A DNA stretch of 64,000 nt. Source: Calditrichia bacterium. GTDB taxonomy: Bacteria; Calditrichota; Calditrichia; RBG-13-44-9; J075. The notes beneath the pieces are model-generated. The model made no database searches. It was not told the origin of the DNA and saw only the letters and a program-made list of their open reading frames with translations. Below, piece after piece: positions 1 to 46,864 of this stretch (positions are counted from its first letter, which is position 1; every line of letters begins with the position of its first letter). The position numbers and the translations under genes are program-made. The stretch covers positions 1 through 64,000 of the forward strand of contig JBOEGD010000005.1 of NCBI GenBank assembly GCA_050633245.1. The letters are read 5' to 3'.

Positions 1-32
1 GACTGCCGACTGCCGACTGCCGACTGCCGACT
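1..32. repeat. Heptamer tandem repeat (GACTGCC)n, about 4.5 copies, truncated by the window edge
   Basis: gactgcc-gactgcc-gactgcc-gactgcc-gact read directly, immediately after the thpR stop codon. Confidence 0.95.
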
Positions 33-592
33 CACGAATTTAAAGAAAACGATTCAACTACAGAATAGACTGCTCCCTTGGGAGATAACTTGCTTTGCAT
101 GAGATGAATTTCGTCCACAGGTATAAGGAATCTTTGCAGGGACATATTTTGAAAAGTCTGTAGCAGTTGTTGAAGATTTTGCTGACCTTTTATTCTACAT
201 AACGTGAGGTGTGGATTGTAGCGTCGCTTTTCACGGGGAAAGCCAACATCGTAGCAAGTTGTTTCTATGCCGTTCTGTAGCTGTTTGAGTGATGTAAGCC
301 CGGCACCATCAAGGCCGATCCAAAGGACGGCGGGATTTTTGAGGTTGGGAAAGGCGCCACCAGTGCCGGTACTAAGCTCAAAAGGCTGGCTGCGTGAAGC
401 GATTTGTTCGAGTGCTTCATACAGTTGTTTTTGCTGCGCGGCTTCCACATCGCCCAGAAATTTTAACGTAATATGAGTAGATTCCGGTCTTACCCAGCGA
501 GCGGGTGAAGGCACAGCACGAAGCTCGTTTATCAGTTTGCCAAGAGCAGACTCAACTCGCGGTGGAATTTTTATGGCGATAAATAAACGCAT
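32..592 (-). CDS. thpR: RNA 2',3'-cyclic phosphodiesterase (2H phosphoesterase, LigT/ThpR family)
   Basis: MRLFIAI N-terminus, two HxT motifs (HITLKFLG, PHLTL), GAFPN...VLWIG, 186 aa. Confidence 0.92.
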   Translation of the reverse strand: MRLFIAIKIPPRVESALGKLINELRAVPSPARWVRPESTHITLKFLGDVEAAQQKQLYEALEQIASRSQPFELSTGTGGAFPNLKNPAVLWIGLDGAGLTSLKQLQNGIETTCYDVGFPREKRRYNPHLTLCRIKGQQNLQQLLQTFQNMSLQRFLIPVDEIHLMQSKLSPKGAVYSVVESFSLNS

Positions 593-628: not shown

Positions 629-3600
629 TTACGATTTATTGCTGTTATTGGGTTCGCGGCGAACAACGCGGAAGCCGAAGGAGGTATTTGATTTATGTGG
701 TGCGTCATTATTTCGTGCATTACAGCGTAGCAGGTTCGTGTCATCATAAAATGCACCACCGCGTAATGCACGGTTGTCATTCTGTGAACTAAAACGATTA
801 GCAGACCATTCCCAAACGTTACCTGCCATGTCCATTAAGCCTTCCGGTGTTGCGCCTTTGGGATAACGCCCTACCGGTGTGGTGCTTCCAATATAATTGT
901 CAAAGTTGGCCAACTCTTCGGTTGGACCCTCTACCGAATCGGGCCAGGGCCAGGTGCGCTCGCCACCGGATGCAGCCCACTCCCATTCCTGCTCAGAAGG
1001 CAGGCTGTAAATTTCAGCAGCATTATTCAGATTCTGATTTTCTATCATAGACAGCCAAAAACAATAAATTCGCGCGGCAAACCAGCTGACGCCAATAACC
1101 GGATGGTGCTCGTAGTTAAAATCGGTTAGGCGTTCCAGTTGTTCCGGGCGCAGTCGTTCACCGAGCTTATTATAAGCACCATACAGATACTCCGCCAAAC
1201 CGTCTACTCGTTGGGCAAACTCGTTCAGGCGATCTTTAAAAAGTTTCAGCGGTAACACACTTTCAACCTCTTCATCAGAGCCGTTCAGATGAGCCAGGAA
1301 GCGTTTATATTGCGCATTGGTTACGGGATACCGGGCAAACCAGCGATCCTGAGTCCGAACGGTTGATTTGGTTACAGAGTAGGTATAGCTGCCACCGGGA
1401 ATAAGAATGAACTCTGCCCCGGTTATGGGATGCGAGAAGCTATTGGTTTCTGTTTCGTCTGCTTCAACTGTCTGCTGCTGCGGAATGTTCTCGGCGGCTT
1501 CGACTGGCGGTTCGGCATTTGTCTTAGTCGGACCAAACTCAATTTCTAAAATCTCTTGCAGGTCGCGACCAATGTCATCCGGTGATTCGTAATAGCTAAT
1601 TGGATTTTCGCCTCGCAATTGCGCAAGGAAGTTTTGCATTCGGTCAATGTCGGAACCACGAGCCGCTTTTACCTCAGCTTGTGGCGTCGGTAAAAACACA
1701 CGAAGCGGTACGTTCATATTGCGGGCAATTTCGTATTGCTCTTCCAGCATGCTGCGATCTCTGCCCGACAGTTTCGGCAGAGCTTCTCCAATAACCAGTA
1801 CGAATAAGTCAGTATCGGCAAGTGTACGTTTTAGATCTTCAAAATATGTATCGATTGTTGTTGAACCGCGATCCTCAACTTCAATACGTTTGTGTCCGCT
1901 GCCTTCAATTGTTTTGATGACAGATGCATATGCCGGCACCATATCGGTGCTGGTATCCATGGCCAGGAAGATGTTTTTTGTGCCATCCGGCGTTTCGGAA
2001 CCCCCCGGGTTATAACCCGGGGCTACGTCTTGCGCCTCGCTACTTGCTTCTCCCGCTCTCCCGCTCTCCCGCTCTCCCAGTCGATCATTCAATGTTTGTA
2101 CTAACGCCGCAAGATCGTCTTCGAAATACTCGTTGCTCATGCGGATGGCCTGACGTTCCGTTAGCGTGTAAATGCTCTCGGGCAGTTCGTCCCCAGGGGG
2201 CATGTCTGCATTGTTGACCAAAACCGGAATAATCGGAATATCCAATCTCATCGCGATTTCTATCTTCAGACGTAGCTCATCGTCCGGTTTGTCGATAAGA
2301 CGATCTCCATCGCTGTTGGTGAATTCATCAAACCAGTTGTCAATGAGAACCAACACGACAGAGCTGGTTTCCAGCATTGTTTCAACATGACTGGCAAAGG
2401 TTTGTCCAATAGGGGGATCATCCAGATAGATGTTTACTCGTGTTTGCGGCATCTGTTCCGGCAAGGCCTCATGAAGACGTCGCGCCATTTCTCCGGAATT
2501 GCGCTCGCGATAGGCAATTGCAATGCGATTTTGCGGAATAGGTGTCTCTGTTGAGCTACTGCTGCTGAAGTCTTCCTGCATGCTGCCAAGGTAGCCGCCG
2601 ATAAAGGCAATTGCCTTGTCGATATCGCGTTCGGCATTTTCTCCATCTATTTGTAGCGGCTGCAGCTCTGCTAAACGCTGTATCGATTTCCGAAGTTCAC
2701 CAACAGCAGGTATTCTGGCACCACCATATAACACCGGAATGATGTACTTGTTTTGCTTTACTGCTTCTTCCAATTCATACAGAAGCCAATCACCATAGTC
2801 GTCAGTATTGACCGAAGTGGCATTCTGCACCCGCCGCAACCAATACGGGCCAATCATTGCCAGTACGATATCCGATTTTTCGATTGCTGCCTGAAAACCA
2901 GCTTCAACGGATTTAGAAGACGCAGTACTTTCCTTTCCGGAAATGGCCGCTTCACCGAACTGTTCAACCAGGCGCTCATGCAGTGGCAGCCACTCCTCAT
3001 CATAGCGATTGCCGTAATAGCTGAAATAAATTGAATTGGGCCGCGGAATAAAACCAGCGGTTTCAGTTCCCTCTAGCTTCTTGCCTCTTGCGGATTCCGG
3101 GTTGAAATCCGGTAATGAAGACTGTATGGCGCTCATTAACTCATCAAAATTTCCACGTACGACTTCCGCACCGTAGTAGGAATCCGGATTCTCGCCCAGA
3201 TCAGGTTCTACTTCATATGGTGCCCAAATAAGGCGTTTTAGTCCGGCGCTACGACTAATGGAGGCCGCCAGGTTATTATCGAAAATCGTTGATGAAACGG
3301 TATCGATATCCAAGTCGCGACTATTGAGCCCAACAAACTGGATAGCCAGATCCGCAGAGGCCAAGCAGTTCTGCATAATGAAAAAGCGAGCCAGGCTGCT
3401 TTGGCCGTCCAGTCCAAGGGGCTCTTCCGGAAGAACGGTGTAGTTTTGTTGCCGCAATTGAAACACCAACTGATCATAATATTCAGCCAAATCATAAGCA
3501 GCATCAGACAGCCAGATGTTCCTGATGTTGTCTATGTTGAGATAGTTATCTGGTGGCAGAACTTTGTTTTGTAGAGTACGGAACTGACTTTCCAGCATTT

Positions 3601-4960
3601 GCAGCAGATCATTCATCGTTTTGCGATAGCGATCCAATACCTCTCCGGTAGATTCCCGGTGGGCAATACTGGGTGGAGCGGCGGGGTCTTCCAGATGGAG
3701 CGGTAATTGAGCACAGTGACGCAGTTCAGTTGGCAGCTCGGAGAGGTCTATCGGTTCCAGCGGTAGCAGGATAATGCGATTGCGAATTGCGCCTTCGCGG
3801 ATGCCTTTAGCGCGATTGGCTTCCAGAAAGACATTGAGCTCTTGCTGAGCCGGTTCGGAGCCTAGCCAGTTCTGCGAATAAATAATTAACAATATTGCGG
3901 TATCCGGGAGCTCGGTACTTAAGTTAACTTCGAGCTTGTTGGTATTGGAAATTAGTATGTTTGCAGATAGCCGCATTACTGAGCCAATGCAGCTATCGAG
4001 GTCTTCATGGAACATTAATACCGGGCCGTCATCACTGTCGTTAAGAGCAATGGCTTCATCATTTTCATGAAAGCTGATGTAAATGTCGTTTTCGTAGTGG
4101 ACGCTTTGGGAGGCAGTCTCCTGCGCCTCCGCTCCTCCCAGATTAGAGTCAGGGGCAACGTTCGAATCGCCCGGCGCGACAACGTCTTGCTGCTCGCTTC
4201 TCGCCTGCTGTGATGTTTCTCCCGTTCTCCCGCTCTCCCGCTCTTCTTTACGTCTCTGCTCTCTGTTCTCTGTTCTTTGTTCTGGTATAGAAGGTAGTGC
4301 CAACTCAACGCTGCCAACCTTAATGTTGCTATTTCCCAACAGGGCAAACGTTTCGCGGGCTAACGGGTCGTTCCCACTTTCTAAATGATTGACGCCTGCA
4401 ACGTAAAGCAGCAAATCATCTTCACCGAGAAGCGGCTCGGCAAGCTGATCGGTGAGTTTACTGAGGCGCTGAATTTCGGCACTGTTGTGACTATGTTGCG
4501 CTTTCTGCAGCTCGAGGGCAATAGTTTGTGCGGCGCGCTCTGGTTCCAGAAAGGCAATGGCAGCAAGCTGCTGTGCCTGTAAGAAATCTTTTCTTACGTT
4601 GCTGTAGGTTCTCGTGAGCTCGCGCTCGGTATAGGCGTATAAGAACTCGGCAATTTCTCTTACCCGGCGCTGTCCAAAATCCTTATCGAGCTTTAGCTCG
4701 CTTAACAAGCCTTCGCGAACATCGCTTTTCATCTGATACATTTCATCACCGGCTTCGCGACAAAGTTGTGAAAGCAATAGATCGGCTTCAGAAATCCAGG
4801 GGGCATTGTTTACAAAGTTGATGCGAATGAGATGCAGGATTTCAGGTGTTAGTCCAAGTGGGAGCGCGGCGTGCATAGCTAAAACTATATGCGCCTCACC
4901 AAACTGGCGGGCATAGGCTTCCAGAAACTGCTGCGCAGACTGTTTGGAAAGACTGGACAT
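629..4960 (-). CDS. Multidomain effector: vWA-associated helical N-terminal domain, five TIR/DUF4062-like domains, C-terminal FGE-sulfatase (SUMF1) domain
   Basis: N-terminal LAMHAALPLGLTPEILHLIR; TIR-type first strands IYISF, IWLSD, IYFSY, IAIAY, IFLAM; W/L.xE.xxA...IIPVL motifs; C-terminal PV..VSWF.A..YC.WL, LPSEQEWEWAA, GL.DMAGNVWEW, RGG.F, GFRVV. Confidence 0.8.
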   Translation of the reverse strand: MSSLSKQSAQQFLEAYARQFGEAHIVLAMHAALPLGLTPEILHLIRINFVNNAPWISEADLLLSQLCREAGDEMYQMKSDVREGLLSELKLDKDFGQRRVREIAEFLYAYTERELTRTYSNVRKDFLQAQQLAAIAFLEPERAAQTIALELQKAQHSHNSAEIQRLSKLTDQLAEPLLGEDDLLLYVAGVNHLESGNDPLARETFALLGNSNIKVGSVELALPSIPEQRTENREQRRKEERESGRTGETSQQARSEQQDVVAPGDSNVAPDSNLGGAEAQETASQSVHYENDIYISFHENDEAIALNDSDDGPVLMFHEDLDSCIGSVMRLSANILISNTNKLEVNLSTELPDTAILLIIYSQNWLGSEPAQQELNVFLEANRAKGIREGAIRNRIILLPLEPIDLSELPTELRHCAQLPLHLEDPAAPPSIAHRESTGEVLDRYRKTMNDLLQMLESQFRTLQNKVLPPDNYLNIDNIRNIWLSDAAYDLAEYYDQLVFQLRQQNYTVLPEEPLGLDGQSSLARFFIMQNCLASADLAIQFVGLNSRDLDIDTVSSTIFDNNLAASISRSAGLKRLIWAPYEVEPDLGENPDSYYGAEVVRGNFDELMSAIQSSLPDFNPESARGKKLEGTETAGFIPRPNSIYFSYYGNRYDEEWLPLHERLVEQFGEAAISGKESTASSKSVEAGFQAAIEKSDIVLAMIGPYWLRRVQNATSVNTDDYGDWLLYELEEAVKQNKYIIPVLYGGARIPAVGELRKSIQRLAELQPLQIDGENAERDIDKAIAFIGGYLGSMQEDFSSSSSTETPIPQNRIAIAYRERNSGEMARRLHEALPEQMPQTRVNIYLDDPPIGQTFASHVETMLETSSVVLVLIDNWFDEFTNSDGDRLIDKPDDELRLKIEIAMRLDIPIIPVLVNNADMPPGDELPESIYTLTERQAIRMSNEYFEDDLAALVQTLNDRLGERESGRAGEASSEAQDVAPGYNPGGSETPDGTKNIFLAMDTSTDMVPAYASVIKTIEGSGHKRIEVEDRGSTTIDTYFEDLKRTLADTDLFVLVIGEALPKLSGRDRSMLEEQYEIARNMNVPLRVFLPTPQAEVKAARGSDIDRMQNFLAQLRGENPISYYESPDDIGRDLQEILEIEFGPTKTNAEPPVEAAENIPQQQTVEADETETNSFSHPITGAEFILIPGGSYTYSVTKSTVRTQDRWFARYPVTNAQYKRFLAHLNGSDEEVESVLPLKLFKDRLNEFAQRVDGLAEYLYGAYNKLGERLRPEQLERLTDFNYEHHPVIGVSWFAARIYCFWLSMIENQNLNNAAEIYSLPSEQEWEWAASGGERTWPWPDSVEGPTEELANFDNYIGSTTPVGRYPKGATPEGLMDMAGNVWEWSANRFSSQNDNRALRGGAFYDDTNLLRCNARNNDAPHKSNTSFGFRVVRREPNNSNKS
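2003..2026 (-). repeat. GTAG-type REP palindrome inside the CDS (GTAG+CCCCGGGTTATAACCCGGGG)
   Basis: Perfect 20-bp palindrome at 2003-2022 followed by CTAC; encodes VAPGYNPG. Confidence 0.8.
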
Positions 4961-4962
4961 AG

Positions 4963-6120
4963 TTAGAGCGCCTTTCCGCGAATAATATCTACGGCCTCAT
5001 CCAATCCGACGCGCGTGAGTGACAGCATTGGAATAGAGGAGCTGATTGAATCGGCAGAGCTGTTTTTCCAGCGTTCTTCCGGTGTCGGATTGATCCAGGC
5101 GATATGGGGTGAATAGCGACGCAGCGTTTCAAGGAATTCATTGGTGCGCCGGACGCGTGCTTTGCTGTTGGATCGGCGCGCCGCACCTCCATCGCTGATA
5201 ATCATAATGCCAGAGTCATGAAATCCGCTCAATACATCCTGTAGGGGAAGACCCGTACTGCGCTTTGCATCTGTGAATAGAGACTTTCGGGGTACGTCAT
5301 GAAAATAGTAGACCGCATAGCGCGATAGTCCACCTTGACGAACCGAGTTTAGCAATCGCTGAATAATGCGTCGAAATGGAACCATCGAGCCGCCTTCATC
5401 TACCAGTAGCAGCAATTCCGCCTGGTTGGTGCGACGAGATCGCATCACCGGATGCAGAAGAAGTCCATTTTCTGCGACCTGCTGCACGGTTCCGGGAATA
5501 TCGAGAATTGTTGCCGGGCCATCCTGGCGCATTCGCCGATAATAGCGCCAGGCGCGTTTCATGTGTCGCTGACGAATCGGATAGCTTCCGACAAGATCGA
5601 GATTGGCATTAATCTGTAGCGGCCTGATTTTTGGAATGCGGACGGCGGTCCCACCTTCCGGCATTTCCGGTAGAAAGCCTAATGGAATAGCGGTTGGTTT
5701 TGGTGATGTAGAATCGGTGTCTGGAGATAAAGCAGGTTCGTCATTTCTCGGGTTATAACCCGAGGCTACATCCTCTGTATCTTTTGTGTTGTTTGTATCT
5801 AGCTTCTCGCTATTCGTCTCTTGCTTGTTTGATTCCTCAGATTCGTCTGTCGTTTCCCGATCCTGTGTTACCAATTCCCGCTTCTCGGCAAGAATGCCCA
5901 GCAGCATCCGACCGAGTTCTTCCTGCTCTTCGCGGGATTTTCCCCAAAGGACCTGAAGCGTAAATACCATGTCTGATTCGGACTCACAGCCAAAGCCATA
6001 GGAAAATGCCTGCAAAGCCAGCTTGAACTCAGCGATGCCCAGTGAGAAGTTGTGCTGTCGTAAGCTATAGAATAGCGTGAGAAGCACGTTAAATAGTGTA
6101 GGTTGAGTAACCGCCTGCAT
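4963..6120 (-). CDS. vWA (CoxE-like) domain protein of a MoxR system
   Basis: MIDAS-like LLLLVDEGGSM, IISDGGAAR, W.NP.P..RW, LD..GTV motif; abuts the MoxR gene. Confidence 0.85.
   Translation of the reverse strand: MQAVTQPTLFNVLLTLFYSLRQHNFSLGIAEFKLALQAFSYGFGCESESDMVFTLQVLWGKSREEQEELGRMLLGILAEKRELVTQDRETTDESEESNKQETNSEKLDTNNTKDTEDVASGYNPRNDEPALSPDTDSTSPKPTAIPLGFLPEMPEGGTAVRIPKIRPLQINANLDLVGSYPIRQRHMKRAWRYYRRMRQDGPATILDIPGTVQQVAENGLLLHPVMRSRRTNQAELLLLVDEGGSMVPFRRIIQRLLNSVRQGGLSRYAVYYFHDVPRKSLFTDAKRSTGLPLQDVLSGFHDSGIMIISDGGAARRSNSKARVRRTNEFLETLRRYSPHIAWINPTPEERWKNSSADSISSSIPMLSLTRVGLDEAVDIIRGKAL
5747..5769 (-). repeat. Second in-frame GTAG-type REP palindrome (CTCGGGTTATAACCCGAG)
   Basis: Perfect 18-bp palindrome at 5747-5764 plus GCTAC; encodes VASGYNPR. 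Confidence 0.75.
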
Positions 6121-7017
6121 TTACTCGTCCTCTTCCTCGAGGCGTTGCAGCAGGTGTAGATCCTGCTGATATTTGAATAGCGTTTCCAGATAGGGAAGTT
6201 TACTGAGCGCATTTTTCTCCAGCGCAGATACATCGCTGCCCCAGAAGTGTAGCACCTTCACCCAGTCAATTAGCTCACTGGTGGATGGACTCTTGCGATA
6301 GCCTTCGACTTCTCGCATATCAATCAGCCGCCTAACTGCTGCATTAACCAGGGTTGTCTCGATTTTGTGCTTTTCTGCAGCAAGATTCACATTGATGATC
6401 TTCTTAAGGCGTTCTTCACTCGGAAAGGGAATTTGATAGAATAGACAGCGCCGCAAAAAGGCATCAGGTAGTTCTTTTTCATCATTGCTGGTAATAATAA
6501 TGATGGGATGCCCTATCGCCTGATAGGTGCGCATTGGATGACCATCTTCCAGCTCAACGACATCAAACGTTTTTTCTTCCAGCTCTCGCAATAAGTCGTT
6601 TGGAAAGTCTATGTCTGCCTTATCAATTTCATCAATCAGCACCACGGATTCTCCGGGATTCATAAATGCCTGACCGAGTGCCTGTAGCTTCACATAGTTA
6701 GCGAGATCTTTTGCATTCGGATCCTGAACCTGCGCGTCGTGCAGGCGCTTAATCATGTCGAGTAAATAGAGGCCGTCTCGTGCTCGAGTGGTAGACTTTA
6801 CATACCACTTGTATAATGGAACATCAAGTTCATGAGCAATGGCGTAGGCGAGCTGAGTTTTTCCACATCCCGGAGGTCCTTTTATCAGCAGCGGGCGACG
6901 CAGCATAATTGCCATATTTACGACGCGAGCAAGGTCGTCATTGGCAAGATAGGGATACGGTCCATTTTTACTGCCCTTAGGGGGCAGTCCGTCACCGCGA
7001 TAGCGATTGCGATCCAT
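6121..7017 (-). CDS. MoxR-family AAA+ ATPase
   Basis: Walker A GPPGCGKT, Walker B VLIDEIDKAD..FPNDLL, ITSN.EKELPDAFLRRC, PSTSELIDW. Confidence 0.93.
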   Translation of the reverse strand: MDRNRYRGDGLPPKGSKNGPYPYLANDDLARVVNMAIMLRRPLLIKGPPGCGKTQLAYAIAHELDVPLYKWYVKSTTRARDGLYLLDMIKRLHDAQVQDPNAKDLANYVKLQALGQAFMNPGESVVLIDEIDKADIDFPNDLLRELEEKTFDVVELEDGHPMRTYQAIGHPIIIITSNDEKELPDAFLRRCLFYQIPFPSEERLKKIINVNLAAEKHKIETTLVNAAVRRLIDMREVEGYRKSPSTSELIDWVKVLHFWGSDVSALEKNALSKLPYLETLFKYQQDLHLLQRLEEEDE

Positions 7018-7026
7018 TTTGGTCTC

Positions 7027-8349
7027 CTAAAACAGGTCGTTTAGTTTTATGAATAGCGATTGAGGTTTGCCGTTTGTTTCATTAAAGAGAGTCGTTGACT
7101 GAATTTTAGCATCAGCTGGCGAAAGGTTCATTTGCCTGCGCAGCCAGCTGCGGATTTCTTTTTCGGTGAAGGATTGCAGTTCCGGTAAGAGAATAAGGTT
7201 GTTCGTTTGAAAGTCTTCGTCAAAGTTTTCCAATGCGTCATCATCACAAATAAAATCATAATCGGTGCAGGTGATGGGACGTTCGTGTTCAACCAGGGCG
7301 AGCAGTTGATGCGCAAGTCCATCCGGAAGCGCTGCAACCAGCGGGATCCAGAATTGTTGTTGGAATGTTACCAGTCCATCCTGCAGGCGTTGGGCATCCA
7401 GAATGGTCAGAAGCATATCACTGCTTTCGAGAATTTGGCTTATGCGAGCAGACAGCTCATTGATATCTGCCGGTTCCCAGCCGTTTTCTATCTGATTACC
7501 GATAATGCGCAGCATATTGCTTAAACCTTGCTCCTGCCAGAGTACTTCCACATTAAATGTGATGCGCTTAATATCGCTGTTGCTTAGCTCTTCATATTCC
7601 ATGGTGAGGCGCTTGATTGCTTCATCCGTTCCTATTTCAGAGTTTTCGGCATGCACGACAAAGCAGACCGCGCGAGTAAGGTCGGAGGCATCTAACTCAT
7701 CAAGCCAGTCTTTGAATTGGCGGGTTTGCGTTTCGCGCCCGAGCTTTAGAATCGTCTGTCTGGCTTGTGGATTTCGTGATTGCGTCTCGGCTTCCCGGGC
7801 AATGCCACGCAGGCCGTCGTTTTGCCACTTTGTAACAATGCGTTGAATTTGTAATGCCATGTCAAGTACTGAGGGAAACGGCATTATCGTAGCTTCATTT
7901 TTCACCAACCGGTGGAAGGCCTTAACCGCTGCTGTATCTTCCGGTTTTTGAGGGTTTGGTTGGTCGGCCCGCTGCTTGAGATCCAGATCTATCTCACTGC
8001 CTCTTGCGGGCATTAATACCGCCATCGGTTTTTTGTAGTGCCGGGCCCAGTGATATTCCAGTTCAGTAATCGACTTTTGTATGGCATCGGGAACGCAGTC
8101 TTCAGCGGGGATTAGTGCGCCATCTGCACCGGGTATCCAGCCATAGCGATAGCCAAAAATACCAACGTAATGGCTGCTATGCTCTTTTAGCTGAGTATGG
8201 CAAACTTCCGGTGCGGGTTTATATTCCGTTACCCAGTTTTCCATCGTTATCGCTACGCCCTTGCCATATTCCTCAATTGCCTTATAGGCAGCAGGACGAC
8301 ATTCTTCCATATCGTAACTGGTAGCGCTGATGAATACTTTTACCGGCAT
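7027..8349 (-). CDS. DUF4062 (TIR-like) effector fused to an inactive STAND-like domain; likely start ATG 8349
   Basis: KVFISATSYDM...YVGIFGYRYGW...SITELEY..A (DUF4062); C-terminal half has a degenerate NTPase-like pattern, F.QQFW.PL and LPEL..F...EI..WL...GKP. The upstream ORF extension is made of heptamer repeats. Confidence 0.72.
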   Translation of the reverse strand: MPVKVFISATSYDMEECRPAAYKAIEEYGKGVAITMENWVTEYKPAPEVCHTQLKEHSSHYVGIFGYRYGWIPGADGALIPAEDCVPDAIQKSITELEYHWARHYKKPMAVLMPARGSEIDLDLKQRADQPNPQKPEDTAAVKAFHRLVKNEATIMPFPSVLDMALQIQRIVTKWQNDGLRGIAREAETQSRNPQARQTILKLGRETQTRQFKDWLDELDASDLTRAVCFVVHAENSEIGTDEAIKRLTMEYEELSNSDIKRITFNVEVLWQEQGLSNMLRIIGNQIENGWEPADINELSARISQILESSDMLLTILDAQRLQDGLVTFQQQFWIPLVAALPDGLAHQLLALVEHERPITCTDYDFICDDDALENFDEDFQTNNLILLPELQSFTEKEIRSWLRRQMNLSPADAKIQSTTLFNETNGKPQSLFIKLNDLF

Positions 8350-8356
8350 GACAAGC

Positions 8357-8385
8357 TCTGGGTTCTGAGTTCTGGGTTCTGAGGT
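8357..8385. repeat. Degenerate heptamer repeat (TCTGRGT)n upstream of the operon
   Basis: tctgggt-tctgagt-tctgggt-tctgagg. Confidence 0.8.
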
Positions 8386-8494
8386 TCGTATTTGATAATA
8401 GATAAGCACCTGAGGAAAATCAAGCGCTCTGTTGCAAGATGCATTATTATAGAGGAAGGATGGGTGATGCAGGTCTACTTAGAGCACCTGCCGC

Positions 8495-23334: not shown

Positions 23335-26300
23335 CTATCGCGTTAGCAACATCTTGCGAACCTTTATAAATCCTTCGGTTTGCAGTCGGTAAATGTAGAT
23401 GCCGCTTGCGAGATTACGAGCATCAAACTGCAGGGTATAAGACCCGGCTGCTGTTTGCTCATTCACTAATGTTGCTACTTGCTGACCCAACACATTATAA
23501 ACCGCCAGCGTTACGAACTGTGCCTTTGGTAAATCGAAGCTGATGTTGGTTGTCGGGTTGAACGGATTCGGATAGTTCTGACCGAGCGCGAATGTCTCCG
23601 GTAGTGCTTCAAAATCCCAAAGCAGTCCTTCACCATCTTTGTAGAGAATGTTGCTCGCCGGAACAATTCCACTACCAATGATGCGACAGGTGTTGACCTT
23701 CTTGGCAAGTGTTTTTGCCAGTCCGTCGTTCGAGCTGTTACCATCGCTCAACAAGATGGAGCAGTATGTTAATACATCTCCTGCAGTGCGACCGTCTTCC
23801 GTAACAACGGTGTATTGTCCGATTTTCAATGAAGCAAAGTTTAGAACCAGAGCTGCTAACTGCCGCCGTGCCCGCTTGTAAGTACTGGCACGACAACCTA
23901 CCTTCAACAGTCTTCGCCATTTACGGAATGTCGTTTTCTCCGCAAAAACATTGAAGTGCGGGGTATAGCGTTCATGTACTGTGTCGATATAATCGTTCAG
24001 CTCCTGCTCCGTTTCCTGTGGATTACCCCAGCTGCAGATATAAGTGCTGAACTGATACTTCCAATAGGATGCCGGGCGAGCGTGGTTACCGGTTACTTCT
24101 TCAGTTAGATAAAAATCTACGATGCTGGTGTCTTCAGCAGCGACGAGCGTTTCCTGGGGATTGCGATCCACAGCGTATCCAAGTGGCGTTACGATGCTAA
24201 CCTGATAACTGTCTGCCGGAACATTGCTGAATAGGTAGCTTCCATCCGCATCCGTGGTGATTGGCGGATAGTTTATGCTGTCATAAGCAAGTCCGGAGGT
24301 ATCGAGCAGGCTGACGGTTACACCAGGTAGTCCGATGTTATTGATGAATACCGTTCCGGATATTACTCCGGGGCCTGTTGCGATATCGCCTGCACTACCG
24401 AATGCGTAGAGTGTGTCTACTTCACAAGAACCTTCATGCATGAAAGTGATTTTATCACTGTAGTCTCCGGCAGGACCAGGACAGAATACAACCTCAAGAC
24501 ATAGACTATCGCCGGCCGGAATAACCGCACTGTCCGGATTCGCCAGAAAGTAATTGCTGCTTGCAGATATGTTGTTGATGACCAAATCGCTGGTTCCGGG
24601 ATTATAAATCTTAATGGTGTCCGGAACAACGGTCCAAGTGTTGATGGTTCCAAAGTCTATGTTCGATGAGGCGAGTTCGAATACCGGGTAGCTAGCCAAT
24701 TCCGGTTGACTGAAGCTGAATGCTTCACCCAAATCGCCAACGGTAAAACCCTGACCTTGAATAAATTCAAGACCTTCCAGTACTACCGGACTTCCAACCG
24801 GAACGATTTCCCAGGTGTCGCCACAATCTTCGGTTTTCAAAATAACACCATTATCGCCAGAGCAATATGCTACGCGTGGACTAACAATTTTACAGGCGCG
24901 TAGCGTTTCGTCTGTTCCACTAACCAGCGGCTCCCAGGTGATGCCGCCATCACGAGTGCGACAAATGGTGCCGTTTTCTCCAACGGCATAGCCAAACGTT
25001 TCACTAACAAATGCACAGTCGTAGAATGTTAAGTTAACGCCGGAGGTCAACGGCGACCATCCTCCCCCATTATAGCGACAGATGGTGCCGTTTTCTCCGA
25101 CTGCATAAGCAGTAGTGCCTACAGCGTAAATTCCGTAGAAAGTAATTGATGTGTTTGTTGGTTGTACAGACCAGCCAATTCCACTGTAGAAACAGATGGT
25201 GCCATTTGCACCTGCTGCGAAACCATAGCCGGGGTTAAGAAAGGATACGCCGTAGAAGTTCGCTGTGGTGTTTGTTGTAAATGGTAGCCAGGATTGTCCA
25301 CCATTGTCGCTGCGACAGAGTAAGCCATTGTCTCCAGCGATAAATGAGCTGTTTCCTATCAGTTTGATGGCGTTTAGATTCTCGGTGGTTCCGGTGTTGC
25401 AGTCACTCCAGGAATCCCCACCGTCTGTTGTAATGCGCAGCGTGCCGTTTGCTCCTACGATGCAGCCGTTTAATGGATCTATAAACGAAACGCCTTTCAG
25501 GTTTGTGGTAGTTCCTGTTGCCAGGCCGTTATAGCCAAGAGAGATACCACTACCGGCAAGATAAACGGTATCGATCTCACAAGATGCATCATGTGTAAAA
25601 AGCACGGTGCCGTTTGTTGTTCCCAGAGCACTTGGCGTGAAGGTGATTTCCAAATCGGCACTATCACCAGGTGCGACAGCCAGGCTTGCTGAAGCAAGAC
25701 TAAACTCTGCAGCATCAACGCTGATTTCGCTCACATCCAATAGAGCAGTTCCATTATTGATGACCCGAACCAGGCTCACATTGCTGGTCCCGATAGCCGT
25801 TGAAGCAAAGTCCAGGTTATTGCTGTTTAAAGCGAAAAGCTGAATATCGGAAACCGCGCTATTGGTAAAGCTGAATGCTTCGCCAAGATCACCGACAACA
25901 AACCCCGAACCATCGACGATGTCAAGTGCTTCTAATGCGAGAGGATAACCAAGCGCTACTTCCGCCCAGGTATCACCACAGTCTGTTGTTTCCAGAACAA
26001 GTCCGTCATCACCAATGCAGTATGCCACGCGTGGACTAATAATTTTACATCCGCGCAGAGTTTGTGTGGTTCCGCTAACTAGTGGCTCCCAGGTAATACC
26101 ACCATCATTCGTTCGGCAGATGGTACCATTTGCGCCAACAGCATAGCCGAAGCGTGAGTTTAGAAAAGCGACATCGAAAAAATTCACCGTGGTGTTGGTG
26201 ACTTGCGGTGTCCAGCTTCCGCCAATATAGCGACAAATAACACCATTCTCGCCAACTGCCCAGGCAGTATTTCCATAGGCGAATACGCCGTAAAAAGCAG

Positions 26301-29300
26301 TGGAAAGACCGGTAGTTTGGGCGCTCCAACTAGCACCATTGTAATAGCAAATTGTTCCGGCACTTCCAACAGCATAACCTGAAGAAACGTTGGTAAATGA
26401 GCTTGCATAAAAACTTGCATTGGTATTCGTGGTGAATGGTGTCCATGTTGCGCCTCCATCATAGCTCACGCAGATGACGCCATTTAGACCGGTAATAAAT
26501 GCCGCGTTACCGATTAGCTGAACTCCGGTCAGGTTGATGTTCGTTCCGGTATTGGAGAACGTCCAGGTAAGTCCACCATCGCTGGTAACAAGAACAGTAC
26601 CACCGATGCCGGTAATGCAGCCGTTTAATGGATCGGTGAAGGAGCATCCGGTGATATCCTGATAAAACCCGGTTGTCTGACGAACAAATGGAGGGTTGAT
26701 GGCAAGATCACAAACTGTGCTGCTAAACTGATAAGCTGCGCCGCTTGCACCAACGATAAATCCCTGACAGCCGGAGAAATCCAGACCTGCTAAATCGGGT
26801 GCATTGTTTATTGGAATGATTGTCCAGGTAAGGCCACTGTCAAGACTTTGCAGAAGGGTACCGTTGGCGCAGGTTGCCCAGATTACGCCTGGTGAAAAAA
26901 TCTTACATCCGGTAATGTCGAAAGTTACGCCACTGTTTAACGGAGTCCAGGTTGAACCGCCATCGTTTGTTTTGCAAATTGTGCCGTTGGCGCCTACAGC
27001 AAATCCCAAACTGGCATTCCAGAAAGCAACGTCATGGAAGTTTACGTTGGTACCAGATGTTTGAGGTAACCAAAAGCCGTTTACATACTTACAGATAATA
27101 CCATTTGTACCGACTGCCCAGGCGTACTGACCATAGGTGTAGACGCTATTAAAGCTTTCGCTGGTACCGGTAGATTGAGCAACCCAGTTAGTGCCGTTGT
27201 AAATACAGATGACGCCGCCACTACCTACAGCAAATCCATAGTATGGGTTCACAAAGCTGCTTGCGTAGAAATTGGCTGTTGTGTTGGTCACAAAAGGTGT
27301 CCAGGTAAGACCGCCGTCATAGGATGCGCAGATTAACCCGTTTGCGCCGGTAATAAACACCACGTCACCAATGACGCTAACACCGGTCAGATTTTCTACC
27401 GTTCCGGTATTAATGGCTGTCCATGTTCCTCCGCCATCGTAGGTAATGAATAAGACACCGCCAGAACCAACAGCATACCCAAGAGTCGCGTTTACAAAAG
27501 CAACGCCGGTTAGATTCTGAGAGGAGCCGATGCTGATGGGAGTAATTGTCAGTCCACTCTCCGTTGCGCTTCCGCTAACGGTTACGATATCGGGCGAACT
27601 AACGGCATTGTGTGAAAATGTAATGTTGCCGCTTTTGCCGCCCGCGCTTAGTGGTGAAAAGATTATCTGGAAGCTCAGGCTGTCGCCTGCTGCAATACTT
27701 GTAGCTGTTGGATTAAAGCTAAATTCTGCATTATCTGAAGAAACAGAAAGCGTAAGTACGCCATAGCCGTTGTTGTAAACGGTAACGCTGTTGCTGCTGC
27801 TATAGCCAACGGCGATCTCATCAAATGAAATGTTTGTATCTGAAATAGCGAAGATAGGATCTTGCTGAACCGTGTTGCTCTCAAATGTAAATCCGGTTCC
27901 ACCTGCGCCAACGACATAGCCAGTACCATTGATAAATGTAATGCCTGCCAGGCTTCCGGGCGCGCCGGTTGTGATAACTTCCCAAGTGGTTCCCCCGTCT
28001 ATTGTTTGAAGAATCACGCCGCCTTCGCATACTGCCCAGGCATTGTTATCATCCACGATGTGAATATTGTAAATCGTCAGGTTAACGCCGGTGTTTATTG
28101 TTGTCCAGCTTCCGCCTCCATTGATCGTGCGATAGATAATCCCACCACTTCCAACGATGTAGCCGTAATTAACGTTTAGAAAATACGCGCCATAGAGTGA
28201 GCCGGTTGCGCCGATGTTAATTGGTCCCCAGCTAACGCCATTCCAGTAGTAGCAAATGCCGTTTACACCAACAGCGTATGCATATGGGCCGACAGTATAG
28301 ATGCCGTAAAAGGTAGTGTTGATGCCTAAGTTTTGTGGAATCCAGCTGACACCGTTCCAATAGTAGATTCCACCGGCACTTACTGCGTATCCGGAGGTAC
28401 CGCTGGTAAACGACGCTGAGTAGAAAGTTTCAGAGGTGTTCGTTATTGTGGGTAGCCAGGTGAGGCCGCCATCAACAGAATAGCAGATATGTCCATTGGC
28501 TCCGGTTACAAACAGCGTATCATTAATAACCGTAATGCTGGTAAGATCATCGCTTATTCCAATATTTCCGGTTGTCCATGAAGAGCCGCCGTCAATTGTA
28601 ATGAGTAGTAGACCATTCTCTCCAACGATATAGCCGTTTAGGGAATCGGTAAAGACGACGCCGGTTAAACTGTCGGTGGATCCGGTGTTAATTCCAGTAT
28701 AGTTGAAGTTCTCCGGAGCAAAAAATGCCGCGATGCTGTGTGGGGCATTAACATTGTCGAAAAGATAATCACCGACTGGGCCAATCGGCTGACCGTCGAC
28801 ATATACCTCACCGATGTTGTAATCAACATCCGGCGTAATGGTATAGAAGGCGTCGCCACCTACAGCAACCGAAAGTAAGCCGGAAGGAGATATTGAACCG
28901 CCATTTCCTGCAGAGGAGACAAGCGGATAAGATGTTGCAATAAAGCTGGCAGTGATGGTATGGTTTGCAGCGATATTACCAAATGTGTAGCTGCTTAACG
29001 GTCCGAGTGAAACACCATCAACCACAACATCTTCGATATTAAAACCTGTATCCGGAGTAATGTCGAATGTACGATTTTCACCGCCCGGAACAGTTAGATT
29101 GCCGTTTGGTGTGATGACACCATTTGCACCAGCTGAGGCATTGATTGAGAAAGACAGCTGATAAAATTCAACCTGAATAGCATGATCTTCTGTGACGTTG
29201 CTAAATGTGTATTCACTCTGCGTTGCGAGATTATTACCATCGACCTCTACCCAGTCTACTGCGTAGCCCGGATCCGGGATGAATTGAAACGTCTGATCGG

Positions 29301-32824: not shown

Positions 32825-34564
32825 CTATTCGTTGTTCAAGTCCAATTCGTCGAGAAGCTTGTAGAGATACGTTCTATTTACGCCCAGAATGCGTGCGACT
32901 TCAGACCTTGATTTTGTCTGTAGCAGAACTCTTTTGATATGGTTTCTTCTAAACGCTTTCTCTGCTTCAGCCAATGTTCCATCTGATGGGAAAGAATCTT
33001 GAAGTGGGGCTCTTTCCAGAAGCTCTGGTGGCAAATCTGTGACGGCAATATTTTCACCTGCGGTTAAAACAACGCAGCGTTGCATCACGTTCTCGAGCTC
33101 GCGAATATTGCCTGGCCACTCGTACGTTTCCAATGCGGCGAGTGCTGCATCTGAAAGTGATAGTTGCTTGCTATCCATTGCGTGTTTTTTTAGAAAAAAC
33201 TCGGCTAATTCCCAAATATCGTCGCGGCGCTTGCGTAGCGGTGGAAGGGTTACTTCAATCACCTTCAAGCGATAATAGAGATCTTCGCGAAAGGTGCCTT
33301 CTGCAACGAGTGCTCCAAGGTTTTTGTTGGTCGCGGCAAGAATACGGATGTCAATCTTACGAGTTTTAATGCTGCCCAATCGCTCGACTTCTCTTTGCTG
33401 AAGCACGCGTAGTAGGCGCGTCTGTAGTGCGCTATCCATTTCACCAATCTCATCCAGAAATAGAGTACCGCCGTCTGCCATTTCTATCTTTCCGGGCTTG
33501 GCTTTCCGGGCACCGGTAAAAGCACCCTGATCGTAGCCGAAAAGCTCGGACTCGAGTAGATCCTTGGGAATAGCTCCGCAATTAATGGCAACAAATCGAC
33601 CGTCGGCCCGAGGGCTGTTTTGATGAATAGCCTGTGCAAAAAGCTCTTTTCCTGTTCCACTTTCCCCAAGGATTAATAAAGATGCCTCGGTTGGAGCAAT
33701 ACGCGAACCAAGACGTAGCAGCTCAAAAAGCACTCTGCTCGATCCAATAATCTCTTCACTCTTAAACTGTCCGCGGAGCTGTTCCAGGGTAAGCGTCGCA
33801 TCGGAGATAAGCTTCTTTTCCAATGCAGAGATTTCTTGCGAGACTTTCAAGCCCCGGCTTATCTGTTGTGCGAAGGATAGTAGGAAAGCTTGATCGGCTT
33901 GCGTAAACGGATTGTTTTTGTTCCGCCTATCTAAATAAACTGCGCCCAAGGTTTTAGAATTCAGCAAGAGTGGTGCGCAGAGAACAGCTTGTATATCCAG
34001 GTGCATAATGCTGTTTTGAGTTGCCAGCGATATATCGTTATGTGTATCATCGACGTGAATTGTTTGCGAATGTTGAGTGGACTGGCGAATGACCGTCATA
34101 CTCATATCGCGAGCGGCCTCGGATTCGGATTCGTCCATGTTTAGGCCAAAGGCATCCTGAAAAGCACCATCCTCGGTTGTTAAAACAATGTAGCCGGCGT
34201 CTGCCTGAAGCTCACGAGTTACGACTTCTATGGCCTTTTGAAGCAACGTGCTACGTTCGGTCTCACTCGAAAATAAGATTCCGGAAGCATAAAGTGTTTC
34301 AAGGCGTTTGTTTTCCGCTTTTAGTGCCTGAAGCTGCTGGCTATCGTTACCTTCAGAAAGTGCCAGCTGTTTTATACTTATATTAATATTGCGGTTTAGG
34401 CTTAAGACATCACTGTATAGCTCCTCAATTTGCTTTGCCGATTTTGCTGCCTGCTCTTCCTTAGCGCTATTTAAAAGGTCGGCAAAGCGAGCCGTCAGCT
34501 CTTTGAAGGATGAATCAACCTGTTGTTCCAACTCGCTACGGATGTCTTGGAAGGATTTTGCCAT
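32825..34564 (-). CDS. Sigma-54-dependent enhancer-binding protein: coiled coil, GAF, AAA+, Fis HTH
   Basis: GESGTGKE, ESELFG, GAFTGA, LFLDEIGE, FREDLYYRL, WPGNIREL, ARILGVNR..LY; GAF LCAPL....LGAVYLD. Confidence 0.95.
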   Translation of the reverse strand: MAKSFQDIRSELEQQVDSSFKELTARFADLLNSAKEEQAAKSAKQIEELYSDVLSLNRNINISIKQLALSEGNDSQQLQALKAENKRLETLYASGILFSSETERSTLLQKAIEVVTRELQADAGYIVLTTEDGAFQDAFGLNMDESESEAARDMSMTVIRQSTQHSQTIHVDDTHNDISLATQNSIMHLDIQAVLCAPLLLNSKTLGAVYLDRRNKNNPFTQADQAFLLSFAQQISRGLKVSQEISALEKKLISDATLTLEQLRGQFKSEEIIGSSRVLFELLRLGSRIAPTEASLLILGESGTGKELFAQAIHQNSPRADGRFVAINCGAIPKDLLESELFGYDQGAFTGARKAKPGKIEMADGGTLFLDEIGEMDSALQTRLLRVLQQREVERLGSIKTRKIDIRILAATNKNLGALVAEGTFREDLYYRLKVIEVTLPPLRKRRDDIWELAEFFLKKHAMDSKQLSLSDAALAALETYEWPGNIRELENVMQRCVVLTAGENIAVTDLPPELLERAPLQDSFPSDGTLAEAEKAFRRNHIKRVLLQTKSRSEVARILGVNRTYLYKLLDELDLNNE

Positions 34565-34620
34565 AAGCTGTATTCCATTACGTTTTTAAAAGATACGGAC
34601 TGAGTTTTTGAAATCCAACG

Positions 34621-34656
34621 CCTTGTAGGACTGCCCAATCGTGCGGCTCTACAAGG
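34621..34656. repeat. GTAG...CTAC REP-like element overlapping the kinase stop codon
   Basis: CCTTGTAG-gactgcccaatcgtgcggct-CTACAAGG inverted ends. Confidence 0.6.
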
Positions 34657-36628: not shown

Positions 36629-36636
36629 TTAATAAT

Positions 36637-37584: not shown

Positions 37585-37610
37585 TTATTTCTTTTATTGA
37601 TAGAATGCCT

Positions 37611-45993: not shown

Positions 45994-46004
45994 TATTAAG
46001 GCTC

Positions 46005-46697: not shown

Positions 46698-46864
46698 CTC
46701 CTTTCGTTTATTTTGGCTTTCGCTTATCAATACGATAAATCGTGACATCAAGAAGCATATATGGAATCAATCGGTCAAACCTGTCACGCTTGATCGTATT
46801 AGATATTGAGGGGACTATTAAAACGGGTTTTGACCTTACTTAATTCATAGGATGTTATACTAAA

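Follow-up and report, generated by a model that had tools for sequence, protein, structure and literature searches.

A probable iSTAND-type MoxR-vWA system in split form with an array of TIR-type domains from a Calditrichota genome

Background

What kind of system is encoded by four closely packed genes that bring together a MoxR-type ATPase, a vWA protein, an inactive STAND module and a long chain of TIR-type domains, and how might it act? This question is raised by a stretch of 64,000 nucleotides (the window) from a Calditrichia bacterium (GCA_050633245.1, contig JBOEGD010000005.1). A sequence-only reading of the window had placed the genes in the MoxR/vWA/iSTAND ternary conflict class, which it called largely untested. 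The latter remark agrees with the literature, in which no experiment was found for any iSTAND system and functional work was found only for the MoxR-vWA pathway of the beta-propeller type. The iSTAND/MoxR-vWA systems constitute a large and purely predicted branch of bacterial immunity, the iSTAND type being one for which we have found no published test. The current analysis identifies the locus as a probable 'ternary' anti-invader system of the MoxR-vWA class and iSTAND type, in a split form distributed over four genes.

Organisation of the locus and its host

The features of the locus are listed in Table 1. The intergenic gaps of 9, 0 and 2 bp between four minus-strand genes, as reported earlier, are borne out by the coordinates in the list of open reading frames (7027-8409, 6121-7017, 4963-6120 and 629-4960). 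The frame of g1 as listed begins with GTG, and an internal ATG at 8349 yields a protein of 440 residues; this start is supported by the closest homologue, P0122, which is also 440 residues long and aligns from residue 1. A promoter scan gave 9 sites against 11.4 expected from shuffles, which is no excess, and the terminator scan gave nothing usable. None of the flanking genes matches known defence genes. A LigT/ThpR gene was considered as a conserved fifth member and rejected, there being no match to it among the ORFs of nine related loci.

Table 1. Features of the four-gene locus, with positions in the window
Feature	Residues	Position	Strand	Description
g1		7027..8349	-	440 aa; DUF4062(NIR)-iSTAND protein, third component
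g1 DUF4062/NIR TIR-like domain	4-102	8044..8340	-	catalytic-equivalent Glu E98
g1 iSTAND (inactive STAND) domain	201-348	7306..7749	-	Pfam PF19995, 2e-11
g2		6121..7017	-	298 aa; MoxR-type AAA+ ATPase, predicted active
g3		4963..6120	-	385 aa; CoxE-type vWA: N-terminal helical domain, disordered linker, vWA domain
g4		629..4960	-	1443 aa; vWA-L, five TIR-superfamily domains and FGE-fold domain
g4 helical adaptor, read as vWA-L	1-235	4256..4960	-	conserved family
Octamer tandem repeat GGGAGAGC (coding strand)		4206..4252		in linker, vWA-L to T1
T1	about 284-470	3551..4111	-	divergent TIR-like; E374 in canonical Glu column
T2	about 476-640	3041..3535	-	DUF4062/TIR-like; D561 at catalytic Glu column
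T3	655-805	2546..2998	-	TIR_2 paralogue; E729 in canonical Glu column
T4	813-953	2102..2524	-	TIR_2; K899 in canonical Glu column
Octamer tandem repeat GGGAGAGC, second copy		2037..2083		in linker, T4 to T5
T5	990-1140	1541..1993	-	DUF4062-like; Q1075 at catalytic Glu column
FGE-sulfatase (FGS, C-type-lectin-like)	1182-1434	659..1417	-	Pfam 2.2e-40

The source genome, which is of an uncultured type and 97.1% complete, belongs to Calditrichota. Of 86 genomes of this phylum, 6 have iSTAND, which makes it rare there, and vWA-L is encoded in a single one. Given this rarity of iSTAND, the lineage was fairly described as unusual. The main text and text supplements of Kaur 2020 (PMC7159879) are without Calditrichota; its source-data tables may list the phylum or the architecture. 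Two further iSTAND-MoxR loci, each with different effector proteins, are present in the same genome, and several systems with differing effectors have been described by these authors in multi-system genomes.

Core components and class membership

Pfam assigns DUF4062 to residues 4-102 of g1 (7.2e-16, 58.6 bits, above the PF13271 cut-off). Neither a Walker A nor a Walker B motif was found in this protein, the iSTAND domain of which has no P-loop. Orthologues of g1 are present in six related loci (phmmer), with E96 and E98 invariant in all six. A profile of these orthologues matches chain 10wc_A, the E97A form of KpSwz, at 4.2e-6. In the alignment the Ala that replaces E97 lies opposite the second Glu in the g1 motif S-x-T-E-x-E, E98 being the equivalent of KpSwz residue 97. 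The match required the profile, single-sequence phmmer being insufficient; phmmer searches of PDB sequences that started from g1 and from T3 to T5 gave chance-level rows only. DUF4062 has been described as an NADase that needs its Glu, namely E97 in KpSwz, E108 in PsAvs2, E98 in Vulcan and E103 in VstA (bioRxiv 2026 preprints). By its sequence, g1 is a DUF4062/NIR TIR-like domain of the NADase type, with the Glu intact, joined to an NTPase-dead STAND module.

The second gene matches AAA (7.5e-12), AAA_5 and bpMoxR (29.2 bits against a cut-off of 27), all above cut-off, and both its Walker A (GPPGCGKT at 47) and Walker B (VVLIDE at 125) motifs are intact, so it is predicted to be an active MoxR-type AAA+ ATPase. 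The third gene product matches VWA_CoxE (6.9e-12). Its residues D241, G243-S245 and S309-D310 are invariant in 9/9 orthologues, both MIDAS aspartates (D241 and D310) being present, and the position of the first MIDAS Ser is Gly in all nine.

A locus search with a six-row alignment provided the nine related loci, which come from cyanobacteria, Acidobacteriota, Gemmatimonadota, Planctomycetota and Chromatiaceae. The order iSTAND-MoxR-vWA-(vWA-L plus variable domains) recurs among them, with vWA directly upstream in all nine and MoxR and iSTAND each in eight, the ninth locus being cut by a contig end. Their effector sets vary and include TIR+EAD1+GUN4, WD40, SH3, DUF4062+TIR, WD40+TIR+AAA_35 and FGE. 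With this recurring order and the Pfam matches to MoxR, CoxE-type vWA and iSTAND, the class named by the sequence-only reading is upheld, as are its domain families (DUF4062, iSTAND, MoxR, vWA, TIR and FGE-sulfatase). Its remark on enrichment in cyanobacteria and actinomycetes needs amending, the mention of actinomycetes being suited to the VMAP type and not to the iSTAND type. The PADLOC check that it had recommended gave no system-level match, with 0 families for g1, g3 and g4 and generic AAA matches only for g2. Kaur 2020 (PMC7159879) describes TIR or DRHyd at the N-terminus of iSTAND in iSTAND systems, and we infer that DRHyd equals DUF4062. Sensing of the invader has been assigned to iSTAND by the authors of the class (Kaur 2021, PMC8195603).

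The match of the vWA protein to the CoxE family and the assembly roles of MoxR-vWA pairs could also suggest a non-immune, housekeeping chaperone pair, similar to CoxD/CoxE or RavA/ViaA, that matures an enzyme of the FGE family. This explanation is extremely improbable, as the third gene encodes an iSTAND protein with an NADase-type domain, the domains of the fourth-gene family vary widely (TIR, SIR2, caspase-like, trypsin), the occurrence is sporadic (vWA-L in 1/86 genomes of the phylum) and no two Cys of the FGE-fold domain lie close together.

The N-terminal adaptor of g4 and its predicted docking on the vWA protein

Residues 1-235 of g4 have no match in Pfam, even at E<=5. This region was earlier described simply as helical, and helical it is; it is no filler, since it belongs to a conserved adaptor family of 1694 representatives (E<=0.001), which is nearly always N-terminal and is followed by highly variable domains. 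TIR_2 is found in 20 of the 57 family proteins scanned, and others carry SIR2_2, CHAT, Trypsin_2, Ras/Roc, kinase and further domains. The variable domains of the fourth-gene family include TIR, SIR2, caspase-like and trypsin domains.

The adaptor suits the description of the vWA-L linker in Kaur 2021 (PMC8195603), where a minority form with vWA-L on a separate gene is also described; the name is given by position and description only. The traits seen here are the position, the helical nature, the conserved synteny (9/9 loci) and the variable C-termini, all compared with the published description only. As the N-terminus of g4 fits vWA-L, the layout of the locus would correspond to the minority form described for the iSTAND type. 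By hhalign, the profile of vWA-L has no detectable similarity (probability 0.1%) to two proteins of this genome in which vWA and effectors are fused.

A complex of g3 with vWA-L has been predicted with an ipSAE of 0.72 (0.72, 0.72 and 0.74 in separate runs) against 0.00 for the best control. The runs share at least 41% of their contacts, and the pLDDT of the partner is at least 83. The ipSAE is the model's own confidence and no measurement; the prediction mark was reached by 116/157 solved complexes and 2/215 mismatched pairs, counts that apply only roughly because our own alignments were used. The predicted interface takes in vWA residues 244-251, 314-315 and 345-350. According to the models vWA-L would dock on the vWA protein at its MIDAS face, a prediction that is new in the current analysis. 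Also new is the likeness of the modelled vWA-L fold, which resembles the winged-helix arm of STAND/NLR proteins; a Foldseek search of the PDB with the good vWA-L model gave no match at E<=0.001.

The TIR-superfamily array

Scanned as a whole against Pfam, g4 matches TIR_2 in two stretches (4.4e-14) and DUF4062 at 1003-1079 (24.2 bits against a cut-off of 24.7). When the domains are scanned alone, T4 reaches 30.6 bits for TIR_2, T3 reaches 22.6 bits (cut-off 28; 1.6e-4), T5 reaches 20.7 bits for DUF4062 (cut-off 24.7), and T1 and T2 have no match even at E<=5. Hence, of the six TIR/DUF4062 domains first claimed for the locus, four are recognised by Pfam, two of which fall short of the cut-off in the scans of single domains, and T1 and T2 are left unmatched. 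The paralogy of T3 and T4 is clear (hhalign 99.9%). T2 is linked to the TIR superfamily by transitive homology and fold, while T1 can be placed there only tentatively, from the features of a language model, a motif and a weak model. The weak model of T1 and T2 aligns with TIR structures including those of TIR-STING, ThsB and SARM1. An AF2 model of T1+T2 from a two-row alignment had a mean pLDDT of 51.9; its Foldseek matches, mostly loose two-domain Rossmann-like ones (TM <= 0.26) with one compact match to the CMP N-glycosidase 4jen_B, were discounted. The sole full-length homologue of g4 found is P0003 (54-56% identity). The effector load was rightly called unusual, since only one other protein with five tandem TIR-superfamily domains ahead of FGS was found.

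In a MAFFT alignment E374 of T1 and E729 of T3 occupy the classical TIR Glu column, a misalignment of two residues being possible, and the Glu of T1 and T3 stands in the canonical column in both orthologues. The canonical column of T4 holds K899 here and Gln in P0003; E901, two residues further, is kept in 8/9 sequences of the subfamily, so from the sequences the status of the catalytic Glu of T4 is ambiguous. At position 1075 of T5 the alignment has Gln here and Glu in P0003. The catalytic Glu is therefore intact in g1 (E98) and apparently also in T1 and T3, whereas T2 has Asp and T5 has Gln in its place; Glu is missing from the canonical column in 3/5 of the g4 domains of TIR type. The suggestion that the TIR/DUF4062 domains are the executioners can accordingly be kept as plausible for g1, T1 and T3, and does not extend to T2 and T5, T4 being ambiguous.

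The differences from P0003 might be read as marks of a decaying copy that has lost its function, T5 having Gln in place of the Glu of the orthologue and T4 having Glu in place of a Trp. Decay is very unlikely, because none of the four frames is interrupted, each junction is tight or has the genes touching, and the core motifs of g1, g2 and g3 are intact.

The retention of the fold with loss of the Glu in T2 and T5 is also what a two-tier signalling scheme would show. In such a scheme the g1 NADase makes a signal derived from ADP-ribose after sensing by iSTAND, T2, T5 and perhaps T4 receive it, and the competent TIR domains then fire. The N-terminal TIR/DRHyd of the third component has been proposed as a signal generator that sets a second threshold (Kaur 2020, PMC7159879; Kaur 2021, PMC8195603); against this, the literature available to us gave no ligand-binding role for a DUF4062 without Glu. 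We regard the scheme as a possible but doubtful explanation.

The FGE-fold domain

A catalytic FGE requires a closely spaced pair of active-site Cys residues. The FGE-fold domain of g4 has only two Cys, C1300 and C1413, which are 113 residues apart. The solved chains nearest to it are PorK/GldK, ToxD, SUMF2 and EgtB, and true FGE chains are absent among the nine solved chains at E<=1e-5. The domain is probably non-catalytic. Its closest relatives are proteins of 900-1070 aa combining NACHT and FGE-sulfatase, with identities of 39-50% over 17-21% of g4. FGS is placed among effector or ligand-binding domains in Kaur 2020 (PMC7159879), where it is the commonest effector of iSTAND systems (about 22%), other domains always being N-terminal to it. 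The part of sensor, which the sequence-only reading gave to this domain, is a possible one. Diversification of the domain by a DGR was considered and rejected: RVT_1 has 0 matches in the genome (97.1% complete), and no template-repeat copy of the 3' end of g4 occurs anywhere in it, the matches to positions 629-1200 of the window being chance ones of 16-27 nt.

The non-catalytic nature of these nearest solved relatives, together with the lack of the canonical Glu in 3/5 TIR-type domains of g4, would also suit an array that serves mainly as a non-enzymatic scaffold or decoy. The superstructure formed by g4 and the lectin-like binding of the FGE-fold domain would then contain the invader, with NAD+ cleavage, if any, coming from g1 only. 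The abstract of Kaur 2020 (PMC7159879) describes effector modules as 'typically in inactive form' and acting through multimeric superstructures. Against this role stand the Glu of T1 and T3, which both orthologues have at the canonical position, and the conservation of E901; the role appears improbable.

Possible mechanism and significance

For the anti-invader system favoured here, we propose that vWA-L anchors g4 to the vWA protein at its MIDAS face, so that the TIR array would be held inactive. An invader cue might be sensed by the iSTAND module, the FGE-fold domain or both, after which MoxR would spend ATP on remodelling the complex of vWA and vWA-L. Those TIR-type domains in which the Glu is retained (E98 of g1; E374, E729 and perhaps E901 of g4) could then assemble and hydrolyse NAD+, leading to growth arrest or abortive infection, with T2 and T5, which lack the Glu, acting as partners in assembly or ligand binding.

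A more speculative and rather unlikely form of this proposal is that the system represents a dismantled NLR/STAND receptor. Its NOD, which is NTPase-dead, would lie on g1, and vWA-L would be the winged-helix/helical 'arm' known from MalT, Apaf-1, CED-4 and plant NLRs, followed on g4 by the TIR effectors and the FGS sensor. In place of the lost STAND ATPase switch, MoxR would act through the vWA protein's MIDAS face, the predicted docking site of vWA-L. The mixed tandem TIR domains, with and without Glu, would form a pre-strung filament in which composite active sites arise only after release.

As a discovery the locus is a modest one, since its class, its split arrangement and its domain grammar have all been published before; the likeness of the vWA-L fold and the docking prediction, both derived from models, are new. 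The locus, of four genes, is compact, and it has three features of practical use, namely an enzyme family shown to be NADase in 2026, clear point mutants and a testable prediction of vWA-L/MIDAS docking, which would make it a reasonable entry point for a first mechanistic study of the class. The presence of TIR-type domains with and without Glu in one chain is relevant to the regulation of TIR assemblies.

Comparison with known systems

The Esr pathway of Actinomycetales (bioRxiv 2026.09.08.750141), whose role in defence is experimentally supported, also has a MoxR-vWA pair in a sensing pathway. It is of the beta-propeller type with kinase/FHA output and a link to Esx secretion and, unlike the present locus, is without iSTAND, TIR and FGS. 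The DGR-diversified FGS sensors of VMAP systems (Kaur 2020, PMC7159879; Dore et al., PNAS 2024, PMC10907252) likewise carry FGS at the C-terminus of the component on the vWA side, whereas neither reverse transcriptase nor template repeat accompanies it here. NACHT/STAND-FGS proteins have a closely related FGE-fold domain but are single-chain, active STAND NTPases; in the present locus FGS is tied to a TIR array and a MoxR-vWA core.

The TIR_2-type domains that apparently have a Glu in the catalytic column (T1 and T3) are similar to Thoeris ThsB, TIR-STING, the TIR-APAZ of SPARTA and NADases of the SARM1 type. In contrast to Thoeris, TIR-STING and SPARTA, there is no ThsA, STING or Argonaute here, and control would rest with an AAA+ chaperone pair. 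The DUF4062 of g1 with its catalytic Glu resembles Swarozyc (KpSwz), Evangelion, NIR-Avs2, Vulcan and Vesta (bioRxiv 2026 preprints), and as in NIR-Avs it is N-terminal to a STAND-like module. Unlike these NADase proteins, the STAND module here is NTPase-dead and stands beside MoxR-vWA, and T2 and T5 are without the Glu; in the available text of the preprints no mention of MoxR or iSTAND partners was found.

The closest resemblance is to the iSTAND ternary systems of Kaur 2020 (PMC7159879), which combine MoxR, a CoxE-type vWA and an inactive-STAND protein with an N-terminal TIR/DRHyd-type domain, place variable effectors behind a helical linker with FGS last, and occur several to a genome. Most of these differ in layout, since the putative vWA-L and the effectors are here on a gene of their own, the minority form of the authors (PMC8195603). 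The described systems also differ from the present one in its five tandem TIR-superfamily domains ahead of FGS and in its host, a member of Calditrichota.

Operon organisation and core genes

Judged from domain content, motif status and synteny, the locus is a genuine and intact member of a described class of predicted systems. It comprises g1 (DUF4062-iSTAND), g2 (MoxR AAA+), g3 (CoxE-type vWA) and g4, in which a helical N-terminal adaptor (read as vWA-L, residues 1-235) is followed by five TIR-superfamily domains (T1-T5) and an FGE-fold domain. With the internal ATG of g1 taken as its start, the gaps between the four genes are 9, 0 and 2 bp, exactly as given by the sequence-only reading. This start is supported by the nearest g1 homologue (P0122), which is equally 440 aa long and aligns from residue 1 with 68% identity.

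Pfam scans of the whole proteins agree with the earlier DUF4062-iSTAND, MoxR, vWA and FGE assignments: DUF4062 (7.2e-16) and iSTAND (2e-11) are matched in g1, AAA, AAA_5 and bpMoxR in g2, VWA_CoxE (6.9e-12) in g3, and TIR_2 (4.4e-14, two stretches) and FGE-sulfatase (2.2e-40) in g4, where DUF4062 reaches 24.2 bits against a cut-off of 24.7. Walker A (GPPGCGKT at 47) and Walker B (VVLIDE at 125) motifs are present in g2. Neither motif is present in g1, in keeping with an inactive STAND. In its DUF4062 domain, directly ahead of the catalytic motif, g1 shares with P0122 an insertion of 14 residues (75-88, about 8086-8127) that the other 4 orthologues lack. PADLOC models gave no specific match to the operon proteins.

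Coordinates of the operon genes, their neighbours in the window and related loci elsewhere in the genome
Feature	Position	Strand	Remarks
g1	7027-8409	-	GTG start; 440 aa from the internal ATG at 8349
g2	6121-7017	-	298 aa
g3	4963-6120	-	385 aa
g4	629-4960	-	1443 aa
LigT/ThpR-type 2H phosphoesterase	32-592	-	both H-x-T motifs; 36 bp downstream of g4
Secreted protein	23335-31812	-	2825 aa; BNR/Sortilin-like repeats, ASH/HYDIN Ig-like domains, T9SS sorting tail
TPR-CHAT, no-family protein, CHASE2-Ser/Thr kinase, sigma-54 activator	32825-40577	-	TPR-CHAT caspase-like, 988 aa; no-family protein 315 aa
Multiubiquitin + Prok-E2_E protein, then ThiF-type E1; Peptidase_M78 (IrrE-like) nearby	44611-46751 and 48031-48879	- and +	
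Second iSTAND-MoxR locus	contig C18, L014 8619-14596		then 1160-aa protein with FGE-sulfatase
Third iSTAND-MoxR locus	contig C36, L015 2-6214		then 1423-aa protein with two Lcl_C domains

The vWA-L adaptor and its predicted docking on g3

No Pfam model matches the helical N-terminus of g4. An exhaustive HMMER search reveals a family in which 1694 cluster representatives reach E<=0.001 and 262 reach <=1e-30; in nearly all of the best 150, with protein sizes of 133-1773 aa, the match is N-terminal. Among the 57 of the best 150 that were scanned with Pfam, TIR_2 occurs in 20 and DUF4062 in 2. Further partners are WD40, SIR2_2, CHAT, Trypsin_2, Ras/Roc, AAA_35 and sigma-54 AAA, as well as SH3, GUN4, kinase, receiver, S1 or TPR domains; 17 of the 57 have no family at E<=1e-6.

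A single profile search of genome contigs recovered 9 loci, in all of which the vWA-L gene immediately follows a g3-like vWA gene. A g2-like MoxR gene precedes the vWA gene in 8, the ninth being cut by a contig end. An iSTAND gene is found in 8 of the 9: phmmer searches with g1 detected 6, of which one is in two pieces and another is cut short, and Pfam added 2. At least 4 have DUF4062 at the iSTAND N-terminus. In a Scytonema locus (L002 6229-6935) the g1 orthologue consists of short frames of 107 and 147 aa, with its middle part missing; it looks disrupted, and the MoxR, vWA and vWA-L genes are intact.

Passages of Kaur 2021 (PMC8195603) describe a minority of iSTAND systems in which vWA-L and the effectors are encoded on a separate adjacent gene, and the N-terminus of g4 fits this. 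The identification is by position and description, since the vWA-L profile did not pick up the fused vWA proteins that this genome also encodes.

The AF2 model of vWA-L is confident (pLDDT 94.4, pTM 0.88; 89-row alignment). Foldseek returned nothing for it at E<=0.001; in an exhaustive VIA-align search arm regions of STAND proteins rank at the top, and Dark, plant NLRs and Avs3 follow further down. Residues 139-230 are akin to TPR-like hairpins.

For g3 (9-row alignment) paired with vWA-L (20-row alignment), three runs of complex prediction yielded ipSAE values of 0.72, 0.72 and 0.74, and all three controls 0.00. Of solved complexes, 116 of 157 reach the mark set by the method, as do 2 of 215 mismatched pairs; with custom alignments these counts apply only approximately. 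At least 41% of contacts agree between runs, and partner pLDDT does not fall below 83. In the confident contacts, the most conserved block of vWA-L (39-63) meets vWA residues 244-251, 314-315 and 345-350, which adjoin the invariant metal-site residues D241/S245 and D310; the N-terminal helices of g3 are also in the predicted interface. The modelled complex supports a predicted binding of vWA-L to g3.

TIR-type domains of g4

The six TIR/DUF4062-like domains counted earlier across the first and last genes are probably right, on graded evidence. Scanned alone with Pfam, T4 (813-953) passes the TIR_2 cut-off, T3 (655-805) falls under it and T5 (990-1140) is a sub-threshold DUF4062 match; T1 (about 284-470) and T2 (about 476-640) have no match. 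T3 is clearly paralogous to T4 (hhalign 99.9%, phmmer 1.8e-7). T2 matches a TIR_2-bearing stretch of the protein P0129 (phmmer 9.2e-7, database of 270 proteins), and also T5 (hhalign, 87%). T1 is the more weakly assigned of the two, by ESM-Atlas features pointing to TIR_2 clusters (score 0.96, 24 of 30 hits) and a canonical TIR motif in alignment. Of 7999 candidates scored from a collection of 5.8 billion clusters, a single homologue, P0003 (1444 aa), shares the whole architecture of g4.

According to portions of bioRxiv 2026 preprints, NAD+ hydrolysis by DUF4062 enzymes depends on a Glu. A profile of 4 g1 orthologues matches the solved chain of the Swarozyc DUF4062 NADase KpSwz (4.2e-6), an E97A mutant whose Ala pairs with the second Glu of S-x-T-E-x-E; this is E98 in g1, unchanged in 6 of 6 orthologues. 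In the MAFFT alignment the same DUF4062 column holds Gln in T5 of the window (Q1075) and Glu in T5 of P0003, Asp in T2 of both, and Gln in P0129. In a separate TIR alignment the classical TIR Glu column is occupied by E374 of T1 and E729 of T3. In T4 this position is Lys (Gln in P0003); E901, two residues further on, is Glu in 8 of 9 subfamily sequences and may be the T4 equivalent. The TIR load of g4 is exceptional and, as read from these alignments, in part degenerate.

FGE-fold domain

Catalytic FGE has a closely spaced pair of active-site Cys residues. The g4 domain has two Cys only, widely separated, and its nearest solved chains are PorK/GldK, ToxD, SUMF2, EgtB and OvsA; it is therefore read as a predicted binding module and not an enzyme. 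The nearest full-length relatives are NACHT-FGE proteins. A diversity-generating retroelement acting on this domain is ruled out by the absence of RVT_1 from the genome (97.1% complete) and of any template-like copy of the g4 3' end within it.

Repeats and neighbouring genes

Two g4 linkers bracketing the T1-T4 block each contain, at 2037-2083 and 4206-4252, a tandem repeat of 8 nt (GGGAGAGC x3, coding strand), which encodes the peptide ERESGR in both. The peptide motif also occurs at both linkers of P0003. Another short repeat, whose product is DVAxGYNP, is common to g4 and the linker of g3 (2006-2029 and 5749-5772). With up to 2 mismatches allowed, the 21-nt pattern is matched 14 times across the genome and its reversed control 0 times; the two other sites inspected are intergenic. 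The linker repeats may be joints at which recombination shuffles domains.

The LigT/ThpR-type gene is missing from all 9 related loci and is therefore probably a mere neighbour rather than a system component. The presence of an enzyme for cyclic-phosphate nucleotides beside a TIR array is noteworthy. The Multiubiquitin/Prok-E2_E and ThiF genes form a prokaryotic ubiquitin-like conjugation pair of a kind known from conflict systems, and close to them is a Peptidase_M78 (IrrE-like) gene.

Host and distribution

In a GyrB comparison, every named match to the source genome's protein is labelled Calditrichota, Calditrichia or Caldithrix, at 76-98% identity, and three window proteins bear T9SS sorting tails. 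The lineage is indeed unusual, as had been suggested: the phylum is rarely reported for such systems, with iSTAND in 6 of 86 Calditrichota genomes (4 above cut-off) and vWA-L in the source genome only (1 of 86). The source genome has three iSTAND loci including that of the window, the other two combining MoxR with long proteins bearing FGE-sulfatase or Lcl_C. On contig C36 the iSTAND gene is the first feature and seems to be broken into two frames.

P0122 probably belongs to the same close relative as a GyrB protein (P0273) that is 97% identical to that of the source genome. If the two share one genome, the system, at 68% identity in g1, is diverging far faster than housekeeping genes.

Proposed mechanism and relation to known systems

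MoxR-vWA pairs remodel partner proteins via the MIDAS site (Kaur 2020, PMC7159879). In the present system vWA-L would tether g4 to g3, a cue on iSTAND and/or the FGE-sulfatase-fold domain would license remodelling by MoxR, and the Glu-bearing TIR-type domains might then deplete NAD+. The fold of vWA-L and its predicted docking are the parts most worth pursuing. No experimental test of any iSTAND system was found in the literature searched; for a beta-propeller-type MoxR-vWA pathway, experimental support is reported in part of bioRxiv 2026.09.08.750141. The system class, the split layout of Kaur 2021 and the way the domains are combined are already described.
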